Shown here: positions 3,314 to 51,051 of the stretch, piece by piece | How positions within the stretch are numbered: position 1 is the stretch's first letter | Layout: every line of letters starts with the position of its first letter | From: Candidatus Aenigmatarchaeota archaeon | GTDB lineage: Archaea > Aenigmatarchaeota > Aenigmatarchaeia > Aenigmatarchaeales > JACQIB01 | DNA length: 64,000 nt | Assembly (NCBI GenBank): GCA_016198755.1 | Contig: JACQIB010000005.1 | Location: forward strand, 64,001-128,000 | Direction: 5' to 3' | Notes under the pieces: model-generated | The model's input: the letters and a program-made list of their open reading frames with translations, nothing else | What the model was told of the DNA's origin: nothing | Database searches by the model: none | Position numbers and translations under genes: made by a program

Positions 3314-3316
3314 CTA

Positions 3317-3838: not shown

Positions 3839-3867
3839 TCCTATTTTGCCTCCTATTTATTTAAAGC

Positions 3868-4353
3868 TCAGCCTGCCTGCTTGGGATCGTACTTATAGGC
3901 TATCCAAAAGATGAAAAATATTAAGACCAGCCCTATAATAAAGGCCAAGTTCTGCGAACCTATACTGGGTATGTTTGGAACAGCTGTTATTCCAACCATA
4001 AGGAAAGCAATGAAAGCCAACCCTACAACAATGAGGGTGAAAGGCTCAACCTTTTCTTTCCCAGTCTTATCCTTTCCTATCCCCAAAGCTTTTGCAAGGA
4101 AAATTATAAAGAAAAATACAACAAAAAACCATGCTAAACCCGGTAGGATTTGAAAGAAGGTTGTTGTAAAAGCACTGTTAGTAGCAGCAAAGAGAGCTAT
4201 TCCCAAAGCTACAACAGCATTAACAGGCTTGCTTTTTAAAACTCCAGCAGTCTGCAGAATCCCGAAAACAATTGCAAAAACAAGGACAAAAGGCAGGTAA
4301 AAGGTTTGGTCTAATAAATTAAATGGTAAGCTGAATTCTGCCATATAAACCAC
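3868..4353 (-). CDS. Multi-pass membrane protein, more distant paralog 3
   Basis: LPFVLVFAIVFGILQ...NAVVALGIAL; same helix layout as paralogs 1 and 2. Confidence 0.82.
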   Translation of the reverse strand: MVYMAEFSLPFNLLDQTFYLPFVLVFAIVFGILQTAGVLKSKPVNAVVALGIALFAATNSAFTTTFFQILPGLAWFFVVFFFIIFLAKALGIGKDKTGKEKVEPFTLIVVGLAFIAFLMVGITAVPNIPSIGSQNLAFIIGLVLIFFIFWIAYKYDPKQAG

Positions 4354-4985
4354 TAAACAAATTCCTTTGACCTTTCTAGTTCGCGTATCTTAGCTTCTAA
4401 ATCAGCTTTCCTGAGCCTCCATGCATTTCTGGACTCTTCTAATGCCCTTCTCTCATCTCCGGCTTTAGTGGCCGAATAGGCTATATTCAACTCTCTCATC
4501 TTCTCATCACATACAATTATATCACTCTTCAGCCTGTCAATAACCTTTCCCTGCTCCCTTCTAGACCATATTTTTCCACCCGCTTTTTCCAGCAACATGC
4601 CTCTGGCCGCAGTTGTTGAAGGGTGTAATATCTTAGGTAGCATAAAAATAACCAAGCTGGTTCCAACAGTTACGAGCATCCAGAACTGGGCTGCCGAAGC
4701 TATAAATGCGTACCAACCATTCCAGATAACAAAAATGTAAAATGCAAAAGACATTAAGAGTCCCAGACCTTTATGACCGGTTCCTATTCTACTATATACT
4801 ATAAAGAGCCACAAAACTATGACTATATGTGGGAAGAAAAGCAAATTCAATAAATCTGATGTCATATCTCCGGTTGGCTGAATCTTTAGAATCCCGAAAA
4901 TTAACTCTGCAATATTGACTTGAGACAGGTCTGGAATGTTAATATTGGGGAGTGTTCCGGCCCCTATCTGAAAGAGTGGAAACAT
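4353..4985 (-). CDS. Membrane protein with C-terminal coiled coil
   Basis: About 3 hydrophobic segments followed by a charged heptad tail (LKSDI...LEAKIRELE). Confidence 0.8.
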   Translation of the reverse strand: MFPLFQIGAGTLPNINIPDLSQVNIAELIFGILKIQPTGDMTSDLLNLLFFPHIVIVLWLFIVYSRIGTGHKGLGLLMSFAFYIFVIWNGWYAFIASAAQFWMLVTVGTSLVIFMLPKILHPSTTAARGMLLEKAGGKIWSRREQGKVIDRLKSDIIVCDEKMRELNIAYSATKAGDERRALEESRNAWRLRKADLEAKIRELERSKEFV

Positions 4986-5015
4986 AAGAATTATTCATGA
5001 GCTATACTTATAAGC

Positions 5016-6458
5016 TTACTCTTTCTTTTCATCATCAACTGGTGTTGATGTAACCTCTATTGGCTTATCTTCTGCTTTATCTGGAAGAATATATGTGAAA
5101 GAATCTGCGGCACCCTTTCCACCCTGAACTTTTGTCTTGCCCCTGAAAAATTTCCCAATTGGAAGAGAACCAGGTTTTAGCAACTCGGCTCTTTTCTGTA
5201 TATAGGCAACAACAGTGGCATCTGTAAGCTCCCCGGCTTTTCTCGCCTCGTCCACATCCCTTCTTGCCTGATCAAGTGTTAATCTCAACCCTGCAACATC
5301 GCGACCAACTTCATCTAACATACCCTGCTTTACAGTAGCATCATTTTCTGCAGCCTCTGCCCTCTTTCTCAGCTCTTCAACCCCTATTAACAGGGTTTCC
5401 CTGTCTGAAGGTGCTGCCTGAGCTTGCTGTACTATTTTATCTGCCTCTGCTTTCACTCTTTCTGCTGCAGCTGCCCTTTCCTCTGCAGTTTTCATGGCAG
5501 CCTCTAAAACTTCCCTCCTCCGCTGCATATCACCCTCCTGATCAACAATTCTTGCTTCCCTCAGATTGAGCGCATCTGCTATTGCTTTGTATTTTACAGA
5601 ATTTTCATCTTCAACAGCCTTGAGACCAGCCTTTTCTTTCTCCAACGCCAGCCTTTGCTGTTCTATGTCTTTTTCTTTCCTGCTAACCATATCAAGTTCA
5701 GCTGCAAGAGCAGCAGTTCCAAGCTGCCTCTCCTTTTCTCTATCTTGATATGCTGTCTCTTCTGTCCTTAGCTTGTCATCCCTTTCTTTCAAACTATCTT
5801 CAAGCTCTCTGTATTGAACCCAGCGCTGCCCCAGTTCCTTTGAACTTGCATCTATATCTGTTCTCTTGGCTTCTAGAGCTCTTGAAGTAGACTCAAATGT
5901 TTCTTTTGCCTGCTTAAGTTCTTCTTTCTCCTTATCAATCCTAGCTCTTTCTTCATCTATTTGTGCCTTTTCCCCAGCCAGTTCATTGTCTTTCTCTTTC
6001 ATGCGCGCTGAGGTCTCTGTATTAAACCTTATGTGCTCCTGAAGTTCTGACATTTGTGAATCATACCTGACTTCCCTTCCTGTTAGATTTTCCTCCCTTG
6101 CTCTCAAATCCCTCTCAACACTTCTCAGATGATTCTGGGCTGCCTTTATCTCATCTTCTCTGGCTTTAACTCCATACCTGCTGTTCTTTAGAACATCTGC
6201 TTCCTCTCTGAGTGCAGCAGCATATTCCCTCAAAAACCAGGTTGTTGCATCCCTTTCTAAATTATTTCTTGTTTCTTGGGTACCTATGGGATCTGCAGTC
6301 CTGTAGTGAGAAATAATATCAGCAAACTGCCTATATGCCTTATCACTTAAGCCCTCTACTTCCGGAAGTCCAAATTTTGATGTTATATGAGTGTAAAGGC
6401 TTTGAGCTGCTTTTATGTCCTTTTCTGCTCCGGCTGCCCTTGGATCATCATTTATCAT
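5016..6458 (-). CDS. Long coiled-coil protein with a novel N-terminal domain
   Basis: 480-aa ORF; roughly residues 80-410 are E/K/R/A-rich heptads; own TATA box and SD. Confidence 0.85.
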   Translation of the reverse strand: MINDDPRAAGAEKDIKAAQSLYTHITSKFGLPEVEGLSDKAYRQFADIISHYRTADPIGTQETRNNLERDATTWFLREYAAALREEADVLKNSRYGVKAREDEIKAAQNHLRSVERDLRAREENLTGREVRYDSQMSELQEHIRFNTETSARMKEKDNELAGEKAQIDEERARIDKEKEELKQAKETFESTSRALEAKRTDIDASSKELGQRWVQYRELEDSLKERDDKLRTEETAYQDREKERQLGTAALAAELDMVSRKEKDIEQQRLALEKEKAGLKAVEDENSVKYKAIADALNLREARIVDQEGDMQRRREVLEAAMKTAEERAAAAERVKAEADKIVQQAQAAPSDRETLLIGVEELRKRAEAAENDATVKQGMLDEVGRDVAGLRLTLDQARRDVDEARKAGELTDATVVAYIQKRAELLKPGSLPIGKFFRGKTKVQGGKGAADSFTYILPDKAEDKPIEVTSTPVDDEKKE

Positions 6459-6489
6459 ATTTTATCACTGAATATTAAAACTTAAATAC
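6456..6489 (-). promoter_or_regulatory. Duplicated promoter/start region, copy 1 (TATTTAA box, GTGAT SD, ATG)
   Basis: catattttatcactgaatattaaaacttaaatac matches 8078..8111 at 32/34 nt. Confidence 0.8.
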
Positions 6490-8080
6490 TACCCCATCTT
6501 GCATATGGATCATCATCTGTTGGATTAATCTCTCCTGGTGTTCCACCGTTTCTTTTATGAGGCACTACAGCTGGTTCTACTTCCAACGCTGGCTCCTGTT
6601 CTAAAGGCGGAGCTGATGGTGGCTCAGCGAAAGATACTGGTGGATATGGAACCGATCTTGGTCTAAATGGAACTGGTCCTGGTCTCCATGCTGGAGGTGG
6701 CTGTATAGGCCGTGAACCCTCTTCTACTTGTCCAAATGAAGCAGGCAATGGCTCCTCTCTTCCAGCTCGTTCCCCTTCTCCATATGCCCATGGTGGAGGT
6801 GGTGGAACAGGAGATTGTACTGGTTCATCATACTGAGATGGTGAATATGGTGGTGGCTCTCGAGGAGGAGCGAGTAATGGAATTGACTGTACTGGAGATT
6901 TTGGAGTCTCCGGAGGCGGAGGAATTGGTGATTTGCGTCGTGATAAATAGTATCCTAAACCAGCTCTCATTCTCCCTGCCCCGACTCCCATTTTATATAG
7001 GCCATCACTTGCATACCTTCTAGCAGACCTTCTTGCTGATTTTGCAGGTTTATTTGCTTCTTTTACACTATTCGCTAAGCTCTTTATCCCATCTAAAGTG
7101 TCAATCTCTTTGTTAGCCCATTCTTTTATGCGTTCCAATCTATTATTGTCTCCATAAAAAATAACACGATATCCAGGAGGAGAATTTTTGGAGATATCCA
7201 TCGGAACTTTTCCTTTGAGACTCGAAATTGTTGTTACTGCCCTTTCATCAATTGCAGTGCTATTACGTATCAGGTGATTTACTGCAGCCTCTACTTGGGC
7301 TTTGCTGCCGTAAAATCTTCCTCTCATAACTCTGCCTGTTTTAAGAGGCTTTGTAAGATCTGTTTTTTTCATTAAATATTCAGCAGCTCCGGATTTTGGT
7401 ATTAGAATAGCTGACCCGTCACTTCCGTAGTATGCGTTTGCTTCCCTACCTGGTTGAAATTCATAAGTAACTTTTTCTTTCTTAGGCTTTTGTGTTTTTC
7501 CAGGTTTAATTACTATAACAACCTCATCATCCGCATTTCCGGATTGAGGAATACTGTTACCTGACTCCCGTATATTAAATACCCCACCAATTGGAGTATA
7601 AGGCGATTCCCCTCTGAACCAACTTCTTGGTTTTCCGGTAGTAACTGGTGCTTGTCCGAAAGAAGATGGAACTGTTATGGGCGGAACTCCAGTAACCGGT
7701 TCATCTGAACCAGATGCACCGCTGGGTGAAAGATACCCAGGTCCTTTAACATCCGGAGTAGAAGAAGGTGGTGACGCTGTAGAACTTCCCCCAGCCCTCG
7801 ATTTGGCTGGATTATAAAAAGTATCCATAAACCAGTTGTATGCTGCATCAGCCTCTTCCCTTGAAATTTCTTTGAATCTTCCAGGATCTCCCATTACACG
7901 TGTGTCGACCCTTCTTACAGTAGATGATAATACAGCTAAAACGTCTTTCTCAGGTATTCCGTATTCTTTAACATCGCTCTCAAGAACTCCTGCCCTCCTT
8001 AATATGGATTTGTATAGAGTTCTGGCTCCCTGCATATCTGGACTTTCTGGAGGCGGTGTTGGTTTTTTGAATATTCCCAT
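6482..8080 (-). CDS. Pro-rich multidomain hypothetical protein (532 aa)
   Basis: Long ORF with two globular-looking segments separated and followed by P/S-rich low-complexity regions. Confidence 0.85.
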   Translation of the reverse strand: MGIFKKPTPPPESPDMQGARTLYKSILRRAGVLESDVKEYGIPEKDVLAVLSSTVRRVDTRVMGDPGRFKEISREEADAAYNWFMDTFYNPAKSRAGGSSTASPPSSTPDVKGPGYLSPSGASGSDEPVTGVPPITVPSSFGQAPVTTGKPRSWFRGESPYTPIGGVFNIRESGNSIPQSGNADDEVVIVIKPGKTQKPKKEKVTYEFQPGREANAYYGSDGSAILIPKSGAAEYLMKKTDLTKPLKTGRVMRGRFYGSKAQVEAAVNHLIRNSTAIDERAVTTISSLKGKVPMDISKNSPPGYRVIFYGDNNRLERIKEWANKEIDTLDGIKSLANSVKEANKPAKSARRSARRYASDGLYKMGVGAGRMRAGLGYYLSRRKSPIPPPPETPKSPVQSIPLLAPPREPPPYSPSQYDEPVQSPVPPPPPWAYGEGERAGREEPLPASFGQVEEGSRPIQPPPAWRPGPVPFRPRSVPYPPVSFAEPPSAPPLEQEPALEVEPAVVPHKRNGGTPGEINPTDDDPYARWGSI

Positions 8081-28143: not shown

Positions 28144-28234
28144 TGGTAGCGGAGGCTTGATTTGAACAAGCGACCTTCGGGTGTTTCAAGTTTTTTATGA
28201 GCCCGACGAGCACTCCAGGCTGCTCCACTCCGCT
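28144..28234 (-). tRNA. Initiator tRNA-Met(CAT) with a 13-nt intron (28183..28195) and encoded CCA
   Basis: AGCGGAGTGGAGCAGCCTGGAGTGCTCGTCGGGCTCATA[AAAAACTTGAAAC]ACCCGAAGGTCGCTTGTTCAAATCAAGCCTCCGCTACCA; A1-U72 pair, GGG/CCC anticodon stem, TTAAATA box upstream. Confidence 0.93.
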
Positions 28235-38204: not shown

Positions 38205-38660
38205 ATGACAATAGACAAGCCTTTATACGAGCTCAAGCCCAGCAGGATATCTTTTGTTACAAATTACTTTCTTTCTGCTGTTCTTGTTAGTATTGTTGGA
38301 GCTGTAAAAGCCCTTGGATTGTACATAAATGAAGTTGGAATTGCTGCTGCGGGGGGATTGGTTTTAATTCTTTTGGTTATTCCTGAAATTGCAAGGGTTA
38401 GGCATCTGTATAAAATTACACCTTCGCAGGTTGTTCAGGAAGTGGGAATTTTAAAAAAGCAGAGGGATAGCATTTTTCTCAATAATATTGCAGATTTGAA
38501 TTCTGACCAGAACTTTTCCCAGAGGTTGCTTATGTTTGGGGATATAAAGATTGGATCTTCCTCTGGGGCTGAGAAGATTGTTTTAAAGGGCATTAGAAAC
38601 CCAAGGGAAATTGTTATAGAGCTTGAAAGGCTAATGCACGAATACGGGAAAGATAAGTAG
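38205..38660 (+). CDS. Membrane protein with a bacterial-PH (bPH_2) domain
   Basis: Two TM helices then YKIT...GIL...Q...QRLLMFGDIKI. Confidence 0.8.
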   Translation: MTIDKPLYELKPSRISFVTNYFLSAVLVSIVGAVKALGLYINEVGIAAAGGLVLILLVIPEIARVRHLYKITPSQVVQEVGILKKQRDSIFLNNIADLNSDQNFSQRLLMFGDIKIGSSSGAEKIVLKGIRNPREIVIELERLMHEYGKDK

Positions 38661-38661
38661 T

Positions 38662-39657
38662 TTATTCTTCAAGTCTTGGGAGTGAAGATAACTCTTTTTT
38701 CAAAGATTCAATTGTTTCAGAGCTGTTTGGGTTTATTCCCAAATCCAGAGCAAGATAAACGCTTATCAGGTCTGCCATGTACAATAATGAAAAGATTTTA
38801 CAGAGAAGGCTTTCCCCAAGAGCCCAAAGCTCTGTATTGGTTTTAAATGCCAGCCTTTTTGTTAATTCAATTCTCTGCCCAACCCTGTCATCCTCCTGAG
38901 GGTCGCGCAGCAAAACAGCTATTGTTTCCTTCGCTCTCGGATCAACAGGCCATGCCATTATCTCGTTGTGATTCATTTCTGGAAACTCTGACCAATAAGA
39001 AAGTGTTCTGCAATCTTCTTGTAACCTGTTGGAAAACCTGCGGGCTATTGATGTATATGGACCTGCACCGAAAATAATCGGAAACTTCCCTCTCAATAGA
39101 ACTGCAACGCCTTTTGCACCGTTATCCACCGAAACATAACCCAGCTCAGGTTTCATGCTGTTTAACAAATTAACTGTCTCAATTACGTTATTCTCCATAT
39201 CTAAAAACCCTGAAACATGGAGTGTTTTCAGCATTGGGAAAAATAGGGTTGCAACTGCAGCACGCGGCTGGGGTGCTTTTGGAATCTTAATAAAAACTGC
39301 TCCTGAGCTTGCACAGAGTTCTTCCAGCTTTCCTCCAGTCCCAATACCCACAACAATTGCACCGCGCTCGAGTGCTTTTTTAGTTGCTGTTAAAGTTTCT
39401 TCTGTATTTCCTGAATGGGAAACTGAAAAGAAAAGGGTCTCGCTGGAAACAAAGGCTGGTATTGAATAGGAACGGTTTACAAAAACCGGTATCGGGAGAG
39501 TTTCCAGCAATAAGGATTGTAAGATATCCCCGCCTATTGAGCTGGCACCCATGCCGGCAACAACAATATTTTTTGGCTTCTGCACAGTAGGTACAGGCAA
39601 AGACCAGGCTGCATAAATCTGGTTTGGCATCGACAATGTATAGTTTAGGAAATCCAT
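38662..39657 (-). CDS. Bifunctional phosphoglucose/phosphomannose isomerase (SIS)
   Basis: GMGASSIGG, SHSGNTEET, PQPRAA, FPEMNHNEI. Confidence 0.9.
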   Translation of the reverse strand: MDFLNYTLSMPNQIYAAWSLPVPTVQKPKNIVVAGMGASSIGGDILQSLLLETLPIPVFVNRSYSIPAFVSSETLFFSVSHSGNTEETLTATKKALERGAIVVGIGTGGKLEELCASSGAVFIKIPKAPQPRAAVATLFFPMLKTLHVSGFLDMENNVIETVNLLNSMKPELGYVSVDNGAKGVAVLLRGKFPIIFGAGPYTSIARRFSNRLQEDCRTLSYWSEFPEMNHNEIMAWPVDPRAKETIAVLLRDPQEDDRVGQRIELTKRLAFKTNTELWALGESLLCKIFSLLYMADLISVYLALDLGINPNSSETIESLKKELSSLPRLEE

Positions 39658-39661
39658 ACCT

Positions 39662-40411
39662 TCATTTCCCAAGATTCTTCCCTCTTTCTCCCGTATATTC
39701 ATACTCAGAACTCTCTAATCTTTTTGCAAAGGGCTTCTCTTCTGTCAGCTCCTCAATAACATGAGCTGAAATCCCTGCTGTGCGGGGGATAACAAAAAAG
39801 GCTTTTGCTACCCTCCAATGGAACCCCATTTCAGAAATTATTGCTGCTATTGCTCCGTCTACATTCAAACACAACTTTTTTCCCTGGGATTTTTCAAGTT
39901 CTTTCTCTAGTTCAAGAGCAAAGTTGCAGTAGCTCCCGAAAATCCCAAGTTCTTTTGCAAGCTTGAAAAGTTTATGAGTTCTTGGATCTGTTGTATAAAC
40001 TTTATGTCCATAGCCTGGAAGCCTTTCTTTCTTGGCTGAAAAGGCAGAAACAACATCCCCAGCTGTTTTACCAAGGTTCTCCTGCAGTACCTTGGCACAG
40101 CCTTCACCAGCACCCCCGTGATGTTCTCCTATTGCAAGTATTCCGGCTGCCAAGCCCTGCACAAAACTTCCGGAACCGGAAGCTGCTGTCCTTGCAGACA
40201 TTATTGAAGGAGTTCCTATACTATGTTCAGCAACAGAAACCAAAATTGAATCAACCATTTTCCCTTCCTCAGCTGTTGGAAGCTTTCCCCTCAGCAGTAA
40301 ATAAACCATTTCAGCATAACTTATTTTTCCTACAAGCTCTTCCAGAGAGTAGCCACGAACAGATGTTCCCTCGTCCGTAGAGTCTGAAATTTTCGTTTTC
40401 CACTTTACCAT
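39662..40411 (-). CDS. ccl: Citryl-CoA lyase (citrate synthase-like fold)
   Basis: WKTKIS...RGY, HGGAGE, PGYGH, DPR, LNVDGAIAA; 249 aa. Confidence 0.88.
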   Translation of the reverse strand: MVKWKTKISDSTDEGTSVRGYSLEELVGKISYAEMVYLLLRGKLPTAEEGKMVDSILVSVAEHSIGTPSIMSARTAASGSGSFVQGLAAGILAIGEHHGGAGEGCAKVLQENLGKTAGDVVSAFSAKKERLPGYGHKVYTTDPRTHKLFKLAKELGIFGSYCNFALELEKELEKSQGKKLCLNVDGAIAAIISEMGFHWRVAKAFFVIPRTAGISAHVIEELTEEKPFAKRLESSEYEYTGERGKNLGK

Positions 40412-41311
40412 TTAAATCGCCCCCTTTATCAGTTCCCCTAACTTATCATGGGTTTCAGCTATTAAAACACCTGCTTCTCTCAGAGCTTTTATTTTCTCTG
40501 TTGGGCTCCCTCTCCCATTTTCTATCAATGCACCGGCATGCCCAAACTGAGTTCCATGCGGGAGTTTTTCAGCAAAAACACCTGCAATAAAGGCTGCTAT
40601 AGGTTTTGTAAACTCTTTCTTTTTTATTGCTTCAGCAATCTTATCCTCGTAAGTTCCCCCAGGCTCACCGAAAATTACAACGCCCTTTGTTTCAGGATCC
40701 TTCTCAAACATTCTTAACAGATCCACAAAATCTGTTCCCAAAATTACATCCCCGCCTATTCCAATTACTGTGCTCTGTCCTAAGCCAGCAGAGCGCACAA
40801 CCCAGGCTGTTTCATTTGTCATTCCACCACTCTTTGATATTACTCCAATAGGGCCCGGTGTGTAAATTTTATCAGTATCGTCCTTTATCCCTCCCAGAAC
40901 TCCAATCTTGCACTGCTTTGGACTAACTATTCCAATAGAAGAGGGTCCAATAATCCTTGCACCATATATATTCGCATACCTTATCATCTGCACAGTATCC
41001 TGTATTGCAACCCCTTCTGTTATCAGATTTACAAGCTTAATCCCGTTGGAAACAGCTTCTATAACAGCTTCCTTCGCAGCTGCAGGCGGAACATAAACAG
41101 CTGTGCAGTTTATTTCAGGGTGGTTTTTCAAAGCTTCATGTACAGAATTATAAACAGGAACTCCTTCTGTGGTCTGTCCTCCCTTTCCAGGTGTTACCCC
41201 AGCAACAACTTTAGTTCCATATTCGAGCATTGTGCGGAGGGCTACCTGCCCAGTCCTTCCAGTAATGCCTTGTATCAAAACCCTTGTATCTTTGTTTACC
41301 AGAATGCTCAT
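40412..41311 (-). CDS. CoA-binding alpha subunit of citryl-CoA synthetase (succinyl-CoA synthetase alpha family)
   Basis: [23 protein letters not shown], phospho-His FGHAGA. Confidence 0.88.
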
Positions 41312-42477
41312 TTTAACCTCTCCATTATTGTTTTTGCTGTCGAAGTCATTGAAACTTCAGAACCATGCACTTCCAAATCCAGCCCTAATTCCTTTCCAAC
41401 ATCTCTTAAAAGCTGTAGTCCTTCCCTCTCATAAGGTCCAGAGCGGCGCACAACAATTGGATATTTTGGCTTCACTTCTCTCAGCGCTTCAACAACGCCC
41501 TGCATTGTCTGGTCCACTCTTGTAAAATTTGCAATCGCCCCTACAATCCATAATCCTTTCAAACAAGGCTGGCCCAGAATAGCTTTTGTTAGAGCATATA
41601 CTTTTTCTTTCGGCGGATCTCCTGAAAACTCAGCATAATTCGCCGGATTCCCACCAGCCAGAATCAAAGCATCCATAGCAGCCATGCTTCCTCCGCCTCC
41701 GGCAGCAAGAAAACCAATATCCCCCCCAAGTTCAATAAACTTTACAGAACCTCTATAGTCTGCTTCATCAACCTGCTTAACAGAAAGCTCCCTGTCTGTT
41801 AGTTCCCTTCCAACACCTATCATTCTGGGTGGGTAAACCCTGTCTTTGTGTTTGTAGCCAGCATCATTATCCAGTTCAATTAAGGCTCCAACAGCCACCA
41901 GCTCCCCCTCTTCAGTCAGGGACAATGGATTTATTTCAAGCAGCCTGCAATCCTCCTCCAGAAAGACAGAATAAAGACGCAATGCAAACTCCGATATTTT
42001 AGGTATTAATTCTGAAGGAAACCCTGCATCCACAGCAGCATCCCTTGCCTGCCACTCTTTTAACCCTAACAACTGATCTATTGGCTTCTTTACCAAATTT
42101 CCTTTTGCAAGCTCGACAACATCCACTCCCCCGCGCGTGCTTAATAGGAGAACAGGCAGCTGGGAATCTGTATCATATAGGAAACTAATGTAAAATTCTT
42201 CCTTGGTTTTTGTTTTTCTTTCAAGCAAAACAGATTTTACTTTTTCTTTCAGCACAAGAGAACCCAGCAAACTGTTTGTAAAGTTAACTGCCTCAGCAGA
42301 GTTGGAAAAGGCCTTGATAGCCCCAGCCTTCCCGCGCCCGCCTGAAAGAACCTGAGCTTTAACAACAACATCATCAAATGGCATTTCTGAAACTGCTGAA
42401 GTAGAGAGAATACCTATGGGAACTTTAATCCCGTGCTTTCTCAGCAGCTGTTTACTTTCAAACTCGTATAGTCTCAT
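41308..42477 (-). CDS. ATP-grasp beta subunit with an ATP-citrate-lyase-type citrate-binding domain
   Basis: [46 protein letters not shown]. Confidence 0.88.
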
Positions 42478-44423
42478 TCAACCACCACTAACGCAGGCAG
42501 TTCATTCAAGCTGCGTATCCAGAAGTCAGGGCTTCCCTCTTTGTTTTTACCTATCAAAGCTGTTTTTGCACCAAAAGCATGCGCATCTTTCAAATCCCTT
42601 TCCCAGCTGTTTCCAACCACAAGAACGCGCTCTGGGTTTGTTTTCATCTGAGAAAGGATAATTTTAATATACTCTGGGGAAGGTTTCATTGTGCCCGTTT
42701 TCTCCGGAGTTATTATTGTTTCAAACATATGGAAAACCCTGCTGTTGAAAGCAGAGTTAATCTTCTTCTTTAATTCAGGTAAAAACTCATCGCTTGCTAT
42801 ACAGATATCGCATGAATCTGAGAGTATATCCAAAACATTTTCCACACCCTTCTCAACCTCCAAATCAGCACCAACCTGCTTCCAGAACTGCTCCAACCCC
42901 TTTTCTATAGTTCCTCCATTGACTTTTGTTCCCAGCTTTTCTAATGTAAGGTTAATTGCATGCTCCCTTCTCCTTTTCTCTGGTTCTTTAGAGTCTTTTA
43001 GGCTGGAAACAACTGTTTTCCATGTTCCTTCTATCAAAGCTTCTGGCAAACCTGTGCTTTTGGAAAGTATAATAAACAAATTCTCGTAAGCCTTGTCAGC
43101 ATGTATTTTATATAATGTTCCGTCAGCATCAAAAACAACTGTATCAAACTTTTTTGCAGGTATTTCCCTTTTCTTTTTAATTCCGTTAAACTCTGAGTAA
43201 TAAGTTGTATAGGATTCTATATTTTCCTTAACGAGAGTCATTGGACCTATAACAGTATTACAGCCCACTAAAACCCCTGGCATTATGTTAACTCCGGTCC
43301 CAACTTTAACATTATGCGCAAGCACACAGCCAAAATAACTCAGGCCAGTCCCAACTCTTTTCTCTCTTACTGTAGACTTTATTTCTCCCCTGTCTATCCT
43401 CCTGTTTGCTGTTGTAAAGCCTGTTCCTATCTTGCAATTTCTTCCGAAGACAGAATTGCCAAAATAACCATTGTGTACATGACAACCTTCCTGAAAAATG
43501 CTTCCTGTAACTTCGGCATGAGCACCAACCATTGTATTGTTTTCCAGATTAGAATATCCTCTTACCAGTGTTCCGTTTCCAACAACACAATTCTCTCCTA
43601 TATAACATGGACCCTTTATAATAGCGTTCTCATAAATTATAGCACCCTCGCCAATCCAGACATCTCCTATAATTTTTGCCCCTTCCTCTATTTTTGCTGT
43701 TTCCGCAATCTTCTGCCCACTCAATCTATAATTCATCAAAAGCCTGCAACAAGTCAGCATATCCCACGAATACTTTAGGGAAGGGAGTTGCTGCTCTGTT
43801 ATTATAACACTGCAATCTTTTTCCTTTCCCATTAGGTTTAGAGCTTCTTCAAATGAATATTCCTGTGCGGGAACTTTTTTGTGGAAAGAAAAGAAGTTTT
43901 TTGGCAAAAGGTAAATGCCGCATACCATTACATCTGAAGGAGCTTTGCCGTCTTCAGGTTTTTCTATTGTTTCAATAAACTTGTCTCCATTTAACTTGAA
44001 AAACCCTCCTCTTGATAAGTCCACAGAATGCTTACCAACGAAAACTGCAGCTGCGCCTGTTTCCTTCTTCTTTTCAACCATTTGCTTTACCAAAGAACCG
44101 CAGGTAAAGTGGTTTGCATTAAGTACAAAGAAGTCCCCGTCTATCAGGGATTCAGCCTGCATTAGGGCATCTCCCATTCCCTTTGGTTCTTTTTGCACAA
44201 CAAACTGCAAATCAAAAGAGAATTTCTTTCCTGCAAATTCTTTCTCAGCCCCCCTCTCAGGACCCTGAACAACAACAACTTTATTTAACCCAGCTTCTTC
44301 CAGTTCTATCAATGTCCATTCCAAAAGGCTGCGGCCCATTATTTTGAATAAAGCTTTCTTATGCTTCTCAGAAAGCGGCCAGAATCTTTTTGATTCACCT
44401 GCGGATAAAACAACTGCCTGCAT
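42474..44423 (-). CDS. GlmU-like sugar-1-phosphate nucleotidylyltransferase/acetyltransferase fused to a HAD hydrolase
   Basis: LSAGESKRFWP; EKP; hexapeptide repeats; C-terminal VVFDADGTL...KP...VGNSWERD. Confidence 0.88.
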   Translation of the reverse strand: MQAVVLSAGESKRFWPLSEKHKKALFKIMGRSLLEWTLIELEEAGLNKVVVVQGPERGAEKEFAGKKFSFDLQFVVQKEPKGMGDALMQAESLIDGDFFVLNANHFTCGSLVKQMVEKKKETGAAAVFVGKHSVDLSRGGFFKLNGDKFIETIEKPEDGKAPSDVMVCGIYLLPKNFFSFHKKVPAQEYSFEEALNLMGKEKDCSVIITEQQLPSLKYSWDMLTCCRLLMNYRLSGQKIAETAKIEEGAKIIGDVWIGEGAIIYENAIIKGPCYIGENCVVGNGTLVRGYSNLENNTMVGAHAEVTGSIFQEGCHVHNGYFGNSVFGRNCKIGTGFTTANRRIDRGEIKSTVREKRVGTGLSYFGCVLAHNVKVGTGVNIMPGVLVGCNTVIGPMTLVKENIESYTTYYSEFNGIKKKREIPAKKFDTVVFDADGTLYKIHADKAYENLFIILSKSTGLPEALIEGTWKTVVSSLKDSKEPEKRRREHAINLTLEKLGTKVNGGTIEKGLEQFWKQVGADLEVEKGVENVLDILSDSCDICIASDEFLPELKKKINSAFNSRVFHMFETIITPEKTGTMKPSPEYIKIILSQMKTNPERVLVVGNSWERDLKDAHAFGAKTALIGKNKEGSPDFWIRSLNELPALVVVE

Positions 44424-44424
44424 T

Positions 44425-45393
44425 CTAATCACCAATTACCTCCAGTAAGGCTGCTGCTGTTTCCGCAGGTTTGTGTTTTATTATATGCGGCCAGTCTTTC
44501 ATTCCGCCCCCCCTAACCCTGTCTTTCTTTTGGGCCTCGCCCAGTGGAGTTTTGTCCACCAAATCCTTAACGATAATTTTTATTCCATCTACATTATCTA
44601 TAGTAACTAGGTCCATTCCAGAATTTTTGTAAAATTCCAGCACATCATCTGAAGGAGTGCCATTGTTTGCAATAACAACATCGGGTTTTCTGCCTGCATA
44701 CTTCTCAATCTCAGCACAGTGCATAGATAATGTAAAACCGGATCTGGAGGTAATGTTTGCTACGTATATGATCTTTTTGCCTTTCAGAGATTCTTTTACT
44801 CCTTCAGACAGAAGTATGGGTATTGTGCTTGTGGAAAGGCCGCCAGGAGCCAGCACAACAAAATCAGCATTTTTTATACTTTCTATCACAGCTTCTGTTG
44901 CCTTTGCAGAAGGATCTAAAAAAAGCCTGTCTACTCTGCTGCTATTATCCCTTGTTCCAATCTCCTGCTCCCCTTTCAGTATTTTCCCATCACCAAGCTC
45001 AGCAACAATATCTGTTTTTTCCTCTGAAACGGGCAAAACCTGACCACGTGCGCCAGAGAGCTTGCCCAGTTTTTCCAGTGCAGCTGTAAGGGAGCCCTCT
45101 GTTTTTATTTTTGAAACAAGCATAAGGTTACCTAAAGAAACACCTTTCATCTCACTCTCTGTAAACCTGTAGGATAAAAGCTTTGTAACAGGATTTTCAG
45201 GATCTGCTAAAGCAGCCAAACAGCTGCGTGCATCACCTATTCCTATAATTCCAAACTGCTCCCTTAAAATTCCTGAATGTCCACCGTTGTCTGTTACAGT
45301 AACAACAGCTGTTAAATTATGGGGAGTGTTGCGCAGCCCGCGTAAGAGATGAGCAAGACCGGAGCCGCCACCGAAGAGAACGATTTTCTTCAT
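44425..45393 (-). CDS. YvcK/GlmR (UPF0052, CofD-like) protein
   Basis: GGGSG, VTVTDNGGHSG, GDAR, GNL, APGGLSTS. Confidence 0.88.
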   Translation of the reverse strand: MKKIVLFGGGSGLAHLLRGLRNTPHNLTAVVTVTDNGGHSGILREQFGIIGIGDARSCLAALADPENPVTKLLSYRFTESEMKGVSLGNLMLVSKIKTEGSLTAALEKLGKLSGARGQVLPVSEEKTDIVAELGDGKILKGEQEIGTRDNSSRVDRLFLDPSAKATEAVIESIKNADFVVLAPGGLSTSTIPILLSEGVKESLKGKKIIYVANITSRSGFTLSMHCAEIEKYAGRKPDVVIANNGTPSDDVLEFYKNSGMDLVTIDNVDGIKIIVKDLVDKTPLGEAQKKDRVRGGGMKDWPHIIKHKPAETAAALLEVIGD

Positions 45394-45398
45394 TATAA

Positions 45399-46100
45399 TC
45401 ACTCCTCCATTAGCTTTCCAGCCAGCTTCACATCAGCATCCAAAAACTCTTCAATGCTATCAAAGTCCATCCAACCGCTGGAAACCTTAAAGGTTTTTAC
45501 ATACTGCTTTGCAGCAAGCTTGTTAACAGCTTCCACTAAAGACAATTCACCTCCATCTATTGGAACAATGCTTTCTATCTCTTCAAAAATATTTGATTCA
45601 AACCTGTAGAGGGCTGTGTTTATCAGGTTTGTTGGGGGGTTTGCAGGCTTTTCTATTATTGCTTTCAGTTTATCCCCCTCCGTTATAACAACTCCATATT
45701 CATGTGGATTTGAAACCTCTGTAACACCAACAGCTGTCCCAGTTTCTGCAAGAGCTCTCCCTACATCAGCTGTTGAATAAAGGGAATCACCCATAAGGAC
45801 AATGAACGGCTCGCGCCCGACAAACTTTTCAGCTGCTGCAACAGCATGCGCTGTTCCTCTTAGCTCACCCTGTTCTATCAGTGTTATGCCAGAAAAGTTT
45901 TCTTTCTTCAAAAATTCCATTATCTTTTCCTTCTTATACCCAACAACAATGCCAATCTCATCATTCCCTGATTTTTTCAAAGCAGTGACAAGATACCAAA
46001 GAAGCGGCTTCTGGCCTATATTTATCAAAACCTTTGGTATGCTTTCTGTCAGCGGGGCTGCCCTTCTGCCCATCCCTGCTGCCAAAATAACTGCTTTCAT
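45399..46100 (-). CDS. Sugar-phosphate nucleotidyltransferase
   Basis: ILAAGMGRR..PLT..PK; GTAHA; GD; EKP. Confidence 0.9.
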   Translation of the reverse strand: MKAVILAAGMGRRAAPLTESIPKVLINIGQKPLLWYLVTALKKSGNDEIGIVVGYKKEKIMEFLKKENFSGITLIEQGELRGTAHAVAAAEKFVGREPFIVLMGDSLYSTADVGRALAETGTAVGVTEVSNPHEYGVVITEGDKLKAIIEKPANPPTNLINTALYRFESNIFEEIESIVPIDGGELSLVEAVNKLAAKQYVKTFKVSSGWMDFDSIEEFLDADVKLAGKLMEE

Positions 46101-46741
46101 TTCATACCCTCCAATGCTTTTCCTTTATTCAGAAACTCTGTTAGCGATACGAAGACTTCATCAGCTGCAGATAAACCAGAAACATAAGACTTGTTTGGTA
46201 TCGCAACACAATACAAACCTGCGTTCTTCGCATCTCTCACTCCCTTTGCAGAGTCTTCAAGTACAAAGCAGTCTTCAGGCTTTAATTTCATTTTAATTAC
46301 AGCATTTCTATACGCCGCAGTCTTTGTGCCAAAATCTTCTGAGGAATTTATTATAGGGAAGTATACATCCAGACCTGTGCCCTTTAGTATTTTTGCTATT
46401 ATGCCCTTTGAACTATTGGAAACCAAAGCCAATTTTAATCCATTCTTCTGGAGTATCAATAACAACTGTTTATACGCTTTTTTAGTCTTTATTTTTGCAG
46501 GTATGGCATCCAGAACAAGTCTATTATATCGAGATACTATAGCCTCGTCTGAAAGCATTATTTTGTAATCGTTCCTGTATACTTCTATATTTTCAGTAGC
46601 GCTATTCCCTATAAACTTTTTATAATCATCCAACGTTAAATTAAATCCAAGGGTTTTTAAAAATGCCTTCTTGCCTAGCCAGTGGAATTCCTCTGTATCT
46701 GCAATAACTCCATCCATATCGGAAATAAATCCTTTGAACAT
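46097..46741 (-). CDS. HAD family phosphatase (beta-PGM/CbbY-like)
   Basis: DMDGVIADTE; VSNS; LEDSAKGV..AKNAG. Confidence 0.88.
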   Translation of the reverse strand: MFKGFISDMDGVIADTEEFHWLGKKAFLKTLGFNLTLDDYKKFIGNSATENIEVYRNDYKIMLSDEAIVSRYNRLVLDAIPAKIKTKKAYKQLLLILQKNGLKLALVSNSSKGIIAKILKGTGLDVYFPIINSSEDFGTKTAAYRNAVIKMKLKPEDCFVLEDSAKGVRDAKNAGLYCVAIPNKSYVSGLSAADEVFVSLTEFLNKGKALEGMK

Positions 46742-46742
46742 T

Positions 46743-49700
46743 TTATTTCACCGTCACCGATTTGGCTAAATTTCTTGGAAAGTCAGGATTGCATCCTCTC
46801 ATTATGGCAAGGTGGTAGGCGAGAACCTGCATTGGTATTATCTGGCAGATGGAATTGAAAACTCCCGCATCCCATACTCTTATCCAGTGGTCAAACACCT
46901 CGTTGTTCTTGGGTCCGACTCCGATTATAATTGCTCCACGGGCTTTCAGCTCTGTTGCATTGCTTATAATATCTTTTTCTGTGTCCTCTGAAACAAAAAC
47001 AATACATGGAGTTCCTTTGTCTATCAATGCTATTGTTCCATGTTTCAGCTCCCCCCCAGGATAGGCTTCTGCATGTATATAGGATATCTCTTTTATTTTC
47101 AGCGCTGCTTCCATTGCTGTTGTATACTGCAAACCTCTCCCAATCAGATAGATATGCTCTTTGTCCTTTAGCAGCTCTGCAACCTTTTTTGTATGCTCCC
47201 TTGCAGCTCCTGAGGTTAAGTGGTATAAAATGTAGATAAGGTTCTGAAGTTTTTCTTTCCCGTCATCATATTTGCCTGCAACAGCATATGCCAAAAGGGT
47301 TAGCAGAGCAACCTGTGCAGTAAAGGCTTTGGTGGAAACAACTGAGATTTCTGGACCAGCGTTTGTCATAAGGTAATGGTCTGCCTCCCTCATTATAGTA
47401 GATCCCATAACATTTACAATGGCTACAGTTTCTGCTCCCCTCTCCTTTGCAGCCTTTATTGGAAGGAGGGTATCCATTGTTTCCCCTGACTGGGAAACTG
47501 CTATAACAAGAGTTTTCTCATTTATGAAGTCGGCATAGTTCATGAACTCTGAGCCTGTTATTGTTACTGTATTCATCTTTGCAACTTTTGCGAAAATATA
47601 GTTAGCATGCCTGCATGCATAGGAAGCTGTGCCGCATGCCACAAAAACAACATTCTCAGCTTTTCTTATCAGCTTTGCAATATTCTCAACTTTTTGCCTG
47701 TTTTGAAGTAAAGAACGCTTAACTGTATCCACTTGTTCTAGAATTTCCTTTATTGTAAAGTGATCGAAATTGCCTTTTTTTGCCTGTTCGGGAGACCAGT
47801 CTATTATATCCGGCTTCCTATCTACAACTTCTGCTGTCAGAAGATTTTCCAGCTTAACTCCGCTCTTGTCTATTATTGCCAGTTCATTATCCCTGAAAAA
47901 TAAAACCTTCTTTGTATGGTCTAAAAAAGCAGGTATATCAGAAGCTATAAAATATTCCTTCTCCCCTACACCTATAACAAGCGGGGAGTCCCTGCGCGCA
48001 GCCAGAAGCATTGGATAATCCTTATGGACAGCCAAAATAGCATAGGCTCCGTCTATTGTTTTTACTGTTTCCTTGAAAGCTTTTAGGAAATCCATTCCCA
48101 TATCCATAAAGTACTGGACTGCGAGGGGGATGGTTTCCGTGTCTGTCTGGCTGGCAAATTTGTATCCTTTTGACTGGAGAAAATTGCGCAGCTCCTGGTA
48201 ATTCTCAACTATCCCGTTATGTATAACAGCAATTTTTCCGTCATTTGAAAGGTGTGGGTGGGCATTTTCTTTCGTTACGCCTCCATGAGTTGCCCACCTA
48301 GAGTTGTGACTTATTAAACCATCTGCAACAAAATTTTCTGTCCCTGGAACTTGTAAGTCATAGACATAAGGAACATCGCTGACAAATTTTCTTATTTCAG
48401 TTATTTTTTGAAAAACAACATCGCTATTCAAATATCTACCAAGATCTGACGAGACTTCTATATTTCCTTTTGCCTGCATCAAGCTTAATAATTGAAGAGC
48501 TGATGTTTTTGTTATAAAGGCTTTTCCGTAAAGCGCTTTGCCCTTTATAGCATATTTCTGGTACATTTCTGCTTTTGTAAGCGGGATGGATTTGTAAGAA
48601 TGTGAGTGTCCCTTGATCATTTTAGAAAGTATACGCTCAGCTTTTTGTAGCTTTTCCGTGCTTGTAAAGCCAATGTTTTTTAAGAATCCCTCTACATCAT
48701 CCGCTGTGTTTATGTTTAGTCCATATACTGGACCCCATACTCTTTCATATTTACTGAAGGAAGACAATATTCCGAATCTTAACAAAAGGAGCTTTAGAGC
48801 CTTTATTAAATTTTCATTATTCATTCTAATCATAATTTGCCTGGATTTTGTGTTGCAGGCTGACTCTGCGTCAAACAATCCGCGTATAAAACCTCTTAAC
48901 TCTTCATCTGGTGTTCTGCCAATGAGTGGGGGCAGAGCCTTGCCTCTTCCAGTCTTGCATATTTCAGGAAAGTTGTACCTTATCCAATCGCATAAAAATT
49001 TGCTATTAATTTCTAATAGGAATGCCTCAGCTTCTTTTAACTTAACTATTCTGCTATTTACATTAAACAGTTTTTTTGCAATTTGTGCATATTTTTTCAA
49101 AACATCTTTTCTGGAGTCTTTAAACCTGATACACCTCTCGTGCACATGTCCGTCTCCAACTAAATAACCTAAGAACTGCAAAAGATCTTCACTGGTGGTT
49201 TCAGGCAATATAATATCTTTTCCGTGTATAGAGTAAACTACTAAAAACCTTTCAGGCTGTATGGAACATATTTGAGATAATTTTATCATAAAACTCTCTT
49301 CAAAATTTCTATCCATGCTACAGAAGTGATCTAAAACAGACCTGCTTAAGCCTGCAATAGTTGCAAATTTATCTATTGTAAGATTATTTTGCCTTAAATA
49401 AGACTTGAAGAGCTCTACAACATCTTTATCATATTTGTAATATCTCTTTAGTGGAACCGTACTTAGATGTTGCGTTTTCCCCTCTATAGTTATTCTAGAT
49501 GGGCATATTAAAATATCTCCGGTGGATAACTCACTTACATGCTTTACAGAAATTTTGCCACTATTTGCAACAAACATCCTGTGCTCTCCAGTACAGACTA
49601 AAGTATTTGCTGGGGTTTTTATCTCAAAAAGCTCATGAGGACTTTCGTGTCTCATTGCATAACAGCTTCTGGTTTTAAGCTTTAGAGTGTCAAAATCTAA

Positions 49701-50000
49701 TGTCATAACTTCTTTATAATCCATTATATCTTCTATTTTGCAGACTGTACCGTCGGCCAGCTGTATATAACTGTTAGGATGTAAGCAGTGGGCAAATGCA
49801 ATCTTTCCCTCAAACTTCTGGGCATCAAAGCCTGAAAAAACCTGATTTACCTTCCCAACATCCTTGTGAACAAGAACTCCGGAACCGTTTACAATAGCTA
49901 CCCCAGCAGAGTCATACCCCCTGTATTCCAGCTTTTTTATTCCATCCAAAACTATTTCCGTCCCGTTTCTCTCCCCAAAATATCCTATTATTCCGCACAT
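46743..50000 (-). CDS. glmS: Glutamine--fructose-6-phosphate transaminase with an intein
   Basis: MCGI, EYRGYDSAG, RWATHG, NAHPH, HNG, SQSGET, GELKHG, PRNLAKSVTV. Confidence 0.97.
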   Translation of the reverse strand: MCGIIGYFGERNGTEIVLDGIKKLEYRGYDSAGVAIVNGSGVLVHKDVGKVNQVFSGFDAQKFEGKIAFAHCLHPNSYIQLADGTVCKIEDIMDYKEVMTLDFDTLKLKTRSCYAMRHESPHELFEIKTPANTLVCTGEHRMFVANSGKISVKHVSELSTGDILICPSRITIEGKTQHLSTVPLKRYYKYDKDVVELFKSYLRQNNLTIDKFATIAGLSRSVLDHFCSMDRNFEESFMIKLSQICSIQPERFLVVYSIHGKDIILPETTSEDLLQFLGYLVGDGHVHERCIRFKDSRKDVLKKYAQIAKKLFNVNSRIVKLKEAEAFLLEINSKFLCDWIRYNFPEICKTGRGKALPPLIGRTPDEELRGFIRGLFDAESACNTKSRQIMIRMNNENLIKALKLLLLRFGILSSFSKYERVWGPVYGLNINTADDVEGFLKNIGFTSTEKLQKAERILSKMIKGHSHSYKSIPLTKAEMYQKYAIKGKALYGKAFITKTSALQLLSLMQAKGNIEVSSDLGRYLNSDVVFQKITEIRKFVSDVPYVYDLQVPGTENFVADGLISHNSRWATHGGVTKENAHPHLSNDGKIAVIHNGIVENYQELRNFLQSKGYKFASQTDTETIPLAVQYFMDMGMDFLKAFKETVKTIDGAYAILAVHKDYPMLLAARRDSPLVIGVGEKEYFIASDIPAFLDHTKKVLFFRDNELAIIDKSGVKLENLLTAEVVDRKPDIIDWSPEQAKKGNFDHFTIKEILEQVDTVKRSLLQNRQKVENIAKLIRKAENVVFVACGTASYACRHANYIFAKVAKMNTVTITGSEFMNYADFINEKTLVIAVSQSGETMDTLLPIKAAKERGAETVAIVNVMGSTIMREADHYLMTNAGPEISVVSTKAFTAQVALLTLLAYAVAGKYDDGKEKLQNLIYILYHLTSGAAREHTKKVAELLKDKEHIYLIGRGLQYTTAMEAALKIKEISYIHAEAYPGGELKHGTIALIDKGTPCIVFVSEDTEKDIISNATELKARGAIIIGVGPKNNEVFDHWIRVWDAGVFNSICQIIPMQVLAYHLAIMRGCNPDFPRNLAKSVTVK
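48303..49787 (-). mobile_element. 495-aa intein with LAGLIDADG homing endonuclease and HTH insert
   Basis: AH|CLHPNS..., TGEH block B, FLGYLVGDG, FIRGLFDAES, VYDLQV..TENFVADGLISHN|SRW. Confidence 0.95.
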
Positions 50001-50139: not shown

Positions 50140-51051
50140 ATGGCAAGGATTTTTGAGACAGTGAAGGGTGAAACGCTTGGTCAGAGCGCTAAGTTACTGC
50201 AGCCCAGCCAAATAAAGCCTGCTTTATCCCAGCTTTCTTGGAAAATTTTGAAAAGCTTGGCTGAAAGGAGTTCATATCCAAAAGCTGTTGCAAGATCTCT
50301 GGGGGAGAATGAACAGAAAGTATATTACCATATACGCAGGCTGGAAAAAGCTGGCTTAATCAGGATTGAAAGCAGGATAGAGAGGGGTGGTGGTGTAGCA
50401 AAAATATACTCTATAACAGCGCCTGCGTTTGCTTTGATTCTAAAACCGCTTGAACCTGTCTCAGCCGGAATAAAGGAAACTCCTGAAGTCTTGGAGCCTT
50501 TTGTGCAGAATGAAAAACTAAACTGCAAAATTATTGTAGCCAGCCCTGAGCCTCATGGGTATACTGGAGGGAGGGGGAAGGACGCGCCTGTTTCAACAGA
50601 GCTTGGATTATTCTTGGGGCAGTTTGTCAATAGCTTTCCACCGCGCTCTGTTTTATTTGATGCTGAAGCGCATGAAAATATTTTAAAACAAAATATTATT
50701 GTTATTGCAGGGCCTGGAGTTAACTCTGTTACTTTTAAGGCAAACAAAAAGCTTCCAATAAGGTTTGAGGGAAAGGGGGAATTTTTCACATCCCTGTTTT
50801 CAACTGCAACAGGGAAAAAGTACGCAGATGAAAGCTGCGGAGTTGTTTTGAAAATAAAAAATCCTTTCAATCCTGCAGCAGAGCTTATTCTTTTAGCTGG
50901 ACGCAGAGCAGCTGGAACGCGCGCTGCGATTGTTGCCTTTACTCAGAAGCTGGAGTATATTTCTGGTGGAAAAAAGCACTGGGCACATGTTGTTAAAGGA
51001 TTTGATACAAACAGGGATGGTTTTGTGGATGATGTGAAAGTGCTGGAGTAA
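50140..51051 (+). CDS. ArsR-type HTH transcriptional regulator with a C-terminal alpha/beta domain
   Basis: WKILKSL...YPKAVARSLG...VYYHIRRLEKAGLI; C-terminal NIIVIAGPGVN, NPFN, AGRRAAGT. Confidence 0.85.
   Translation: MARIFETVKGETLGQSAKLLQPSQIKPALSQLSWKILKSLAERSSYPKAVARSLGENEQKVYYHIRRLEKAGLIRIESRIERGGGVAKIYSITAPAFALILKPLEPVSAGIKETPEVLEPFVQNEKLNCKIIVASPEPHGYTGGRGKDAPVSTELGLFLGQFVNSFPPRSVLFDAEAHENILKQNIIVIAGPGVNSVTFKANKKLPIRFEGKGEFFTSLFSTATGKKYADESCGVVLKIKNPFNPAAELILLAGRRAAGTRAAIVAFTQKLEYISGGKKHWAHVVKGFDTNRDGFVDDVKVLE

Follow-up and report, generated by a model that had tools for sequence, protein, structure and literature searches.

Citryl-CoA synthetase and lyase genes inside a UDP-GlcNAc operon of an Aenigmarchaeota archaeon: a proposed route from citrate to amino-sugar acetylation

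The window analysed here is a 64,000-nucleotide stretch from a groundwater Candidatus Aenigmatarchaeota archaeon (GenBank assembly GCA_016198755.1, contig JACQIB010000005.1, positions 64,001 to 128,000). Its minus strand carries, at 38662-50000, nine closely packed open reading frames (ORFs) in the order GlmS, HAD, NTP-transferase, YvcK, GlmU/HAD, citryl-CoA synthetase (CCS) beta, CCS alpha, citryl-CoA lyase (CCL) and phosphoglucose/phosphomannose isomerase (PGI/PMI). We favour, with moderate confidence, the reading that this operon couples a two-enzyme, ATP-dependent cleavage of citrate to the synthesis of UDP-N-acetylglucosamine (UDP-GlcNAc). From GlmS to PGI/PMI, neighbouring genes are first set apart by 1 nt, then overlap by 4, 4, 11, 4 and 4 nt, then abut (0-nt gap) and finally overlap by 41 nt; they are presumably co-transcribed. 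All items of this run that the initial annotation had described were recovered, including the motifs of the beta subunit. The arrangement exceeds chance, because relatives with beta subunits only 40-50% identical also have the beta-alpha-CCL triad and show it linked to amino-sugar genes.

Gene identities were assigned with Pfam and NCBIfam profiles, and the enzyme family was placed by score ranking against the Protein Data Bank (PDB), by Pfam domains and by individual residues. The large (beta) subunit of CCS (41308..42477, minus strand) combines ATP-grasp_2 (PF08442, 147 bits) with Citrate_bind (PF16114, 116.6 bits); the latter replaces the Ligase_CoA domain of SucC, and Pfam reports no Ligase_CoA in the protein. 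As a whole, the protein matched the CCS large subunit of Hydrogenobacter (6hxq_B, 218.8 bits) ahead of the beta subunit of Chlorobium ATP-citrate lyase (ACL; 185.6 bits) and the top SucC entry (171.2 bits). With the C-terminal domain alone, every ACL or CCS entry in the PDB scored above every SucC entry: ACL-beta 104.6, CCS 102.1, Methanosaeta ACLY-A 86.7 and human ACLY 71.8 bits, against 63.2 bits for the top SucC. The beta motifs named in the initial annotation align with Chlorobium ACL-beta and human ACLY, and where SucC has GGIVRCD and VVRLEG, beta has IANFT and RR. Beta is assigned to the CCS/ACL type rather than to SucC, and the early proposal of a CCS/CCL-type rather than a SucCD enzyme is borne out by Citrate_bind, the PDB ranking and the curated models.

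It is highly improbable that the genes encode an ordinary succinyl-CoA synthetase next to a citrate-synthase fragment, or else a piece of the reductive tricarboxylic acid (rTCA) cycle. SucCD belongs to the same superfamily, shares the fold and the phosphohistidine mechanism, and provides the top solved match of alpha (an archaeal SucD); databases also label many homologues 'succinyl-CoA synthetase beta subunit', and CCS and CCL are classically the enzyme pair of the rTCA cycle. However, beta scored 243.5 bits with the SucC models of NCBIfam (cut-off 370), alpha was under the SucD cut-off, beta carries Citrate_bind, and the window's own genome has a second, distinct and more SucCD-like pair elsewhere. 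Against the rTCA variant, no aconitase, isocitrate dehydrogenase (IDH), POR/OGOR or TPP enzyme was found, as detailed below for the families searched.

The CCL gene (39662..40411, minus strand) encodes a short citrate-synthase homologue of 249 aa, which scored 317 bits with NF004869 (cut-off 212) and 239.6 bits with NF004866, slightly under the cut-off of 245. Its best PDB match was citryl-CoA lyase 6hxp_A (246.2 bits; runner-up 79.8 bits), and the alignment displays the motifs HGGA, GYGHKVY and NVDG, which we take to have catalytic roles. The small (alpha) subunit of CCS (40412..41311, minus strand) has CoA_binding and Ligase_CoA domains and the phosphohistidine loop GHAGA, visible as FGHAGA in its alignment. 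At the alpha/CCL junction (40414-40409), TAA is followed by ATG in the same frame with no gap. Alpha and CCL are separate ORFs, and this is therefore the split CCS plus CCL form and not a fused ACL. The split enzymes are predicted to be CCS (EC 6.2.1.18) and CCL (EC 4.1.3.34), new members of a known family. The nearest solved relatives of beta and CCL are CcsAB and Ccl of Hydrogenobacter thermophilus (6hxq, 6hxp), likewise three separate polypeptides with equivalent domains; the H. thermophilus enzymes serve the rTCA cycle, whereas here no rTCA partners were found and the genes lie inside a UDP-GlcNAc operon. ACL (EC 2.3.3.8) would share the chemistry with the enzymes described here, but its alpha and lyase parts are fused, in contrast to the two ORFs divided by TAA.

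The citrate contacts of human ACLY in the corresponding part of the protein, listed in an excerpt of PMC11365397 as residues 280-281, 307-310, 343-348 and 379, were mapped onto beta via the alignment to 3mwd_A. At 10 of these 13 positions beta has the same residue as human ACLY, including N346, T348 and R379. Across 18 homologues of beta, there is no variation at N317, F318, R344 or R345, and at least 90% share T319.

In the proposed mechanism, CCS (beta plus alpha) would convert citrate, CoA and ATP to citryl-CoA via a phosphohistidine on alpha, and CCL would cleave citryl-CoA to acetyl-CoA and oxaloacetate. PGI/PMI would give fructose-6-phosphate, from which GlmS, once its intein is spliced, would make glucosamine-6-phosphate. 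The mutase step to glucosamine-1-phosphate might, as a guess, fall to one of the HAD proteins of the operon; HAD-family alpha-phosphoglucomutases exist. The LbH domain of GlmU would then acetylate from acetyl-CoA, freeing CoA for reuse by CCS, and its nucleotidyltransferase domain would form UDP-GlcNAc, which YvcK would sense or bind. YvcK stimulates GlmS in Bacillus. Citrate would be imported from a host or the environment, and the flux would run towards acetyl-CoA. Because no POR, PDH-type TPP enzyme or AMP-forming acetyl-CoA synthetase was found, the cell's acetyl-CoA for biosynthesis probably comes mainly from the module, which probably also feeds the HMG-CoA synthase of a mevalonate operon elsewhere in the genome. 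Such a role would match that of ACLY, the anabolic acetyl-CoA supplier in the eukaryotic cytosol.

The phylum search covered 371 genomes, including seven of the window's family. A search of genome contigs with a single protein gave three loci, and a broader genome search and an alignment-based metagenome scan were then applied. A CCS-type beta (at least 46% identity) was found in 11 of the 371 genomes, and the triad is intact wherever contig extent permits. Among these loci, amino-sugar genes linked to the triad were found, outside the window's own genome (G000), solely in two genomes of a sister genus of the same family (G030 and G031). The G030 locus reads GlmS-HAD-NTPtr-GlmM-GlmU-beta-alpha-CCL, with GlmM in the operon slot held by YvcK elsewhere, and its GlmS (L004:4223-5995, 590 aa) has no intein. 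The G031 locus is fragmentary and carries GlmU, an IMPase-YvcK fusion, beta and alpha. The fusion (L003:411-2168) is a 585-aa protein in which an inositol-monophosphatase/FBPase-family domain is joined to YvcK; the open frames around many in-phylum YvcK matches likewise span 470-570 aa, an indication that YvcK fusions may be frequent in the phylum.

Two remoter loci of the phylum differ in their surroundings. In a 97%-complete relative (L011, G195:C2, 9413-19365), the triad abuts a convergent mevalonate cluster with two GHMP kinases, a NUDIX protein and an MVD-like gene (255 bits), a second acetyl-CoA-consuming pathway adjoining CCS/CCL. Across the phylum, CCS and HMG-CoA synthase did not co-occur: a search with one query gave an HMGCS-like match in 2 of the 11 CCS genomes versus 13 of the 360 others. 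In L012 (G264:C1, 11504-12833), thioredoxin-like and DsbD-like genes are inserted between alpha and CCL. The beta of this archaeal locus clusters with a Patescibacteria-named clade (SH-aLRT 95), a placement that hints at inter-domain transfer.

The alignment-based scan of metagenome contigs gave 431 relatives, and the best 80 loci were kept. Of these, 43 loci have 4 kb or more of downstream sequence; all 43 have alpha after beta, and 39 also have CCL. The sole four exceptions, the near-identical loci L034, L035, L038 and L041, carry beta and alpha but lack CCL over at least the first 4 kb downstream. Where the contig reaches 4.5 kb or more upstream (36 loci), GlmS was found in 19 and YvcK in 18, each on the same strand and no more than 6 kb away. 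One remoter DPANN locus (L017) reads GlmS-GlmU-orf-beta-alpha-CCL.

A beta tree of 99 rows was built by an IQ-TREE quick search and rooted on the SucC-like paralogue of the window's own genome; the short loci L032, L076, L084 and L085 were left out. A DPANN clade had an SH-aLRT of 100, and the window's five-row subclade is the sole linked part of it. A second clade (support 99) holds proteins whose sources are named Parcubacteria, Magasanikbacteria (two) and Patescibacteria group. Clade counts include each distinct beta sequence that has 1 kb or more of upstream sequence; since the loci share ancestry, the counts describe the pattern and do not amount to a statistical test. In the clade named for the Candidate Phyla Radiation (CPR), a GNAT or LbH/GlmU-type acetyltransferase lies near the triad in 24 of 29 cases and GlmS or YvcK in 23 of 29, and in a smaller Patescibacteria-named clade an acetyltransferase does so in two of three. 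Conservation of the linkage, as expected from the initial annotation, holds for the window's family and the CPR-named clade and fails for the other Aenigmarchaeota and DPANN relatives examined. Acquisition of the operon from CPR in one piece lacks support, as the window's beta falls inside the DPANN clade. The window's YvcK has in-phylum relatives of up to 43% identity and scores 69-157 bits with CPR-clade YvcKs (phmmer), two measures that are not directly comparable.

Three kinds of acetyltransferase adjoin the module in independent lineages: a GlmU-fused LbH domain, a stand-alone LbH protein and a small GNAT. In the window's family, the LbH domain belongs to the GlmU whose gene immediately precedes beta. 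The order NTPtr-GlmS-(HAD)-YvcK-GNAT-beta-alpha-CCL is found in many CPR-clade loci, where the GNAT has 107-111 aa and weak PDB matches, among them glucosamine-phosphate N-acetyltransferases at 29 bits. The stand-alone LbH proteins (210-234 aa) lie upstream of beta in L045, L048, L049 and L058 and after CCL in L039 and L040; the one of L048 aligns with positions 211-389 of 393 in Arch_glmU, its acetyltransferase half, at 152.6 bits. The module thus recurs beside different enzymes that share only their co-substrate, and it therefore likely supplies acetyl-CoA. The link to sugar N-acetylation drawn in the initial annotation is strengthened by this recurrence.

The window's own genome comprises 890,842 bp in 6 contigs with about 40% G+C, and is 89.46% complete with 0.56% contamination. 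Its nearest named homologues are from Aenigmarchaeota and DPANN, in agreement with the small, reduced genome predicted from the window. It contained no match to POR_N (PF01855), Aconitase (PF00330), AMP-binding, TPP_enzyme_C (PF02775) or Thiolase_N, and CCL was the sole match to Citrate_synt; Iso_dh (PF00180) was found in none of the seven family genomes. As controls, the families searched in this genome, including PGM_PMM_I, CitMHS and Na_sulph_symp below, gave a match in 10-14 of 14 named genomes, except PEPCK_GTP (2 of 14). Carbon fixation by the rTCA cycle, which the initial annotation had already discounted, is excluded by these searches within the limits of an 89%-complete genome. POR_N occurs in 296 of the 371 phylum genomes and in none of the three with the linked operon (G000, G030 and G031); two genomes without CCS, G029 and G032, likewise lack it. 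ARAGORN found only nine tRNA genes in the 890 kb, including a 91-nt tRNA-Asp in the window (28144-28234); the remaining tRNA genes may be intron-containing, split or unassembled.

An ADP-forming acetyl-CoA synthetase (ACD; alpha L001:5912-7228, beta L001:4164-4958) was present in all seven family genomes, and no other rival route to acetyl-CoA was found in the window's genome among the families searched. The mevalonate operon mentioned above encodes HMG-CoA synthase, diphosphomevalonate decarboxylase, HMG-CoA reductase and GHMP kinases. Apart from amino sugars, at least one large biosynthetic sink for acetyl-CoA thus exists, in this operon, and ACD is a conceivable second source. The mevalonate operon also encodes the second SucCD-like pair (L002, G000:C5:54000-68000, at 4965-6901), in the order HMGCS, MVD, NUDIX, HAD, SucC2, SucD2, a weak HMGR-like 488-aa protein, HMGR and three GHMP kinases. 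SucD2 scored 379.5 bits (over the cut-off of 336) and SucC2 244.7 bits (under the cut-off of 370); as no thiolase was found, the pair may activate a scavenged acid, possibly acetoacetate or HMG, for the mevalonate pathway.

The presence of ACD alpha and beta in all family genomes also bears on a catabolic role, in which citrate would serve as a fermentation substrate, acetyl-CoA from CCS and CCL would be converted to acetate and ATP via ACD, and the GlcNAc neighbourhood would reflect co-regulation with growth on citrate. In B. subtilis, growth on Krebs-cycle intermediates requires yvcK. We consider this role unlikely: the ATP regained by ACD equals the ATP spent by CCS, so that a net gain would require use of the oxaloacetate, for which the families searched gave no enzyme, and the acetyltransferases beside the module in 24 of the 29 CPR-clade loci point to use of the acetyl-CoA rather than to its disposal. 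Reverse operation, from acetyl-CoA and oxaloacetate via citryl-CoA to citrate and ATP, would be an ATP-conserving synthesis of citrate. The ACL and CCS reactions are near equilibrium, with about -5.9 kJ/mol for citryl-CoA synthesis in the accessible part of a preprint (bioRxiv 10.1101/2022.10.25.513756). This direction is nevertheless very unlikely, since the only other source of acetyl-CoA found is the ATP-consuming ACD, no aconitase or IDH was found to use the citrate, and the adjacent acetyl-CoA consumers favour production.

Several findings weigh against the proposed coupling of citrate cleavage to UDP-GlcNAc synthesis. The first concern the substrate. Three of the 13 contacts in the PMC11365397 excerpt differ between beta and human ACLY (Y307F, A310D and S343A), and alpha is nearer to archaeal SucD (2yv2_A, 297.2 bits) than to the CCS small subunit of H. 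thermophilus (6hxq_A, 247.7 bits). Both would fit a ligase and lyase whose substrate is an analogue of citrate, such as methylcitrate, citramalate or hydroxymethylglutarate, as would a Chloroflexia homologue with 37% identity that adjoins PrpD with no CCL nearby. An analogue is quite unlikely, given that N346, T348 and R379 are retained and invariant or near-invariant in the 18 homologues, and that CCL reaches 246 bits with the characterised Hydrogenobacter enzyme. The Chloroflexia record itself (L005, 8001-12153) has beta and alpha genes downstream of an MmgE/PrpD gene, and they perhaps encode a ligase for a different tri- or dicarboxylate.

Further points against the coupling come from the genome and from the relatives. 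No match to the two citrate transporter families tested, CitMHS and Na_sulph_symp (DASS), was found in the window's genome. Nor did the families searched give an enzyme to remove oxaloacetate: PEPCK_GTP had no match there, and PEPCK_ATP and HMGL-like had none in the seven family genomes, which leaves a 34-bit aminotransferase match and a 228-aa protein with Ldh_1_N only. The ORF of the latter (L001, G000:C6, in the region 2685-4114) lacks the C-terminal LDH/MDH domain, adjoins arginase-family and ACD subunit genes and may encode a truncated or minimal dehydrogenase. PPDK_N was found only in G032-G034 among the seven family genomes, with no match in the three that have the linked operon; gluconeogenesis from oxaloacetate feeding GlmS is not supported in the window's genome, as PEPCK and PPDK_N were not found. 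GlmM (PGM_PMM_I) had no match in this genome either, and at 89% completeness families without a match are not proven absent. ACD could supply acetyl-CoA from acetate or consume it. Five remoter phylum loci with good flanks (L006, L008, L009, L011 and L012) have unrelated neighbours, and an acetyltransferase lies near the triad in 2 of 10 distinct metagenome loci of the DPANN clade and in 0 of 11 of the remaining clades. POR_N is present in seven of the eight other CCS-bearing phylum genomes, so CCS/CCL is not a strict replacement of POR across the phylum.

In the initial annotation, the cell was thought to cleave scavenged citrate specifically to supply acetyl-CoA for amino sugars. In substance the supply of acetyl-CoA to amino sugars is retained. 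'Specifically' is too narrow in view of the mevalonate operon with HMG-CoA synthase and of ACD, and 'scavenged' is conjectural: the genome offers no route to citrate synthesis, yet neither CitMHS nor DASS, the two transporter families tested, was found.

The remaining genes of the run complete the picture of a UDP-GlcNAc operon. GlmS (glutamine--fructose-6-phosphate transaminase; 46743..50000, minus strand, 1085 aa) scored 652 bits with NF001484 (cut-off 381) and contains GATase and SIS domains. It is interrupted by an intein of ~495 aa (residues about 72-567) with a LAGLIDADG homing-endonuclease domain; Pfam places Intein_splicing at residues 79-566 and LAGLIDADG_3 at 367-444. The HAD-IA hydrolase that follows (46097..46741, minus strand) is beta-phosphoglucomutase-like (HAD_2 83.9 bits; TIGR02009 69.7 bits, under the cut-off) and is a candidate sugar-phosphate mutase or phosphatase; homologous HADs sit between GlmS and YvcK in CPR-clade loci. 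A stand-alone sugar-1-phosphate nucleotidylyltransferase of 233 aa (45399..46100, minus strand) matched NTP_transferase with 129 bits and the N-terminal half of TIGR03992 (Arch_glmU) with 200.1 bits. The YvcK/CofD-related UDP-GlcNAc-binding protein (44425..45402, minus strand) scored 231.6 bits with TIGR01826 (cut-off 196) and 247.5 bits with CofD. The archaeal-type GlmU is fused to a C-terminal HAD (42474..44435, minus strand, 653 aa; NTP_transferase 7-206, Hexapep/LbH 245-344, HAD 431-633), and its 272.2 bits over profile positions 1-393 of TIGR03992 are slightly under the subfamily cut-off of 292.1. The pathway set in this genome accordingly has GlmS over and GlmU under cut-off, with no match for GlmM.

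The last gene of the run encodes the bifunctional PGI/PMI (38662..39702, minus strand; TIGR02128 229.4 bits, cut-off 213.9; bact-PGI_C and SIS domains), and the run stops there because a plus-strand gene (38205-38660) comes next. Divergent to GlmS lies an HTH_20/ArsR-type protein (50140..51051, plus strand; HTH_20 29.5 bits), a possible regulator; an HTH_20 protein has the equivalent divergent position upstream of GlmS in the sister-genus locus L004. An Rfam scan of the window gave no match. Among the sequencing runs listed as containing the stretch there was no RNA run, and the four DNA runs, all of one study, may be its source.

CCS and CCL homologues in DPANN and CPR, mis-annotated as succinyl-CoA synthetase or citrate synthase, have been described in a preprint, which in the part accessible to us reads the same gene family and organism groups as evidence of rTCA evolution and syntrophic cycle sharing (bioRxiv 10.1101/2022.10.25.513756). 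The available sections of PMC8091004 list a few DPANN metagenome-assembled genomes with these genes under carbon fixation, and those of two Patescibacteria-related papers mention ACL solely as an rTCA marker or in a figure legend. A coupling of CCS/CCL to amino sugars was not found in print in the literature searched, the preprint's supplementary table aside. The occurrence of CCS/CCL in DPANN and CPR is already known; their conserved placement in UDP-GlcNAc operons outside the rTCA cycle is a new functional variant.

We tentatively extend this proposal beyond the window, as a possibility that falls somewhat short of probable: citrate from hosts or surroundings may be the standard acetyl donor for envelope amino sugars in much of Patescibacteria/CPR and some DPANN, with CCS plus CCL repeatedly joined to glucosamine acetylation via three acetyltransferase types, which are non-homologous or differently built, in two domains of life. 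How CPR and DPANN organisms source central precursors is a standing question, since most are uncultured. CCS/CCL is usually taken as a marker of rTCA carbon fixation, also in the metagenome surveys as far as their available sections go, and this would be the wrong reading for these genomes. If the proposal is true, the module defines a specific metabolic dependency of these symbionts, which is testable as citrate in, oxaloacetate out and acetyl into cell wall or glycans. It would give a hint for cultivation, namely to supply citrate, and a prokaryotic counterpart to the anabolic role of eukaryotic ACLY.

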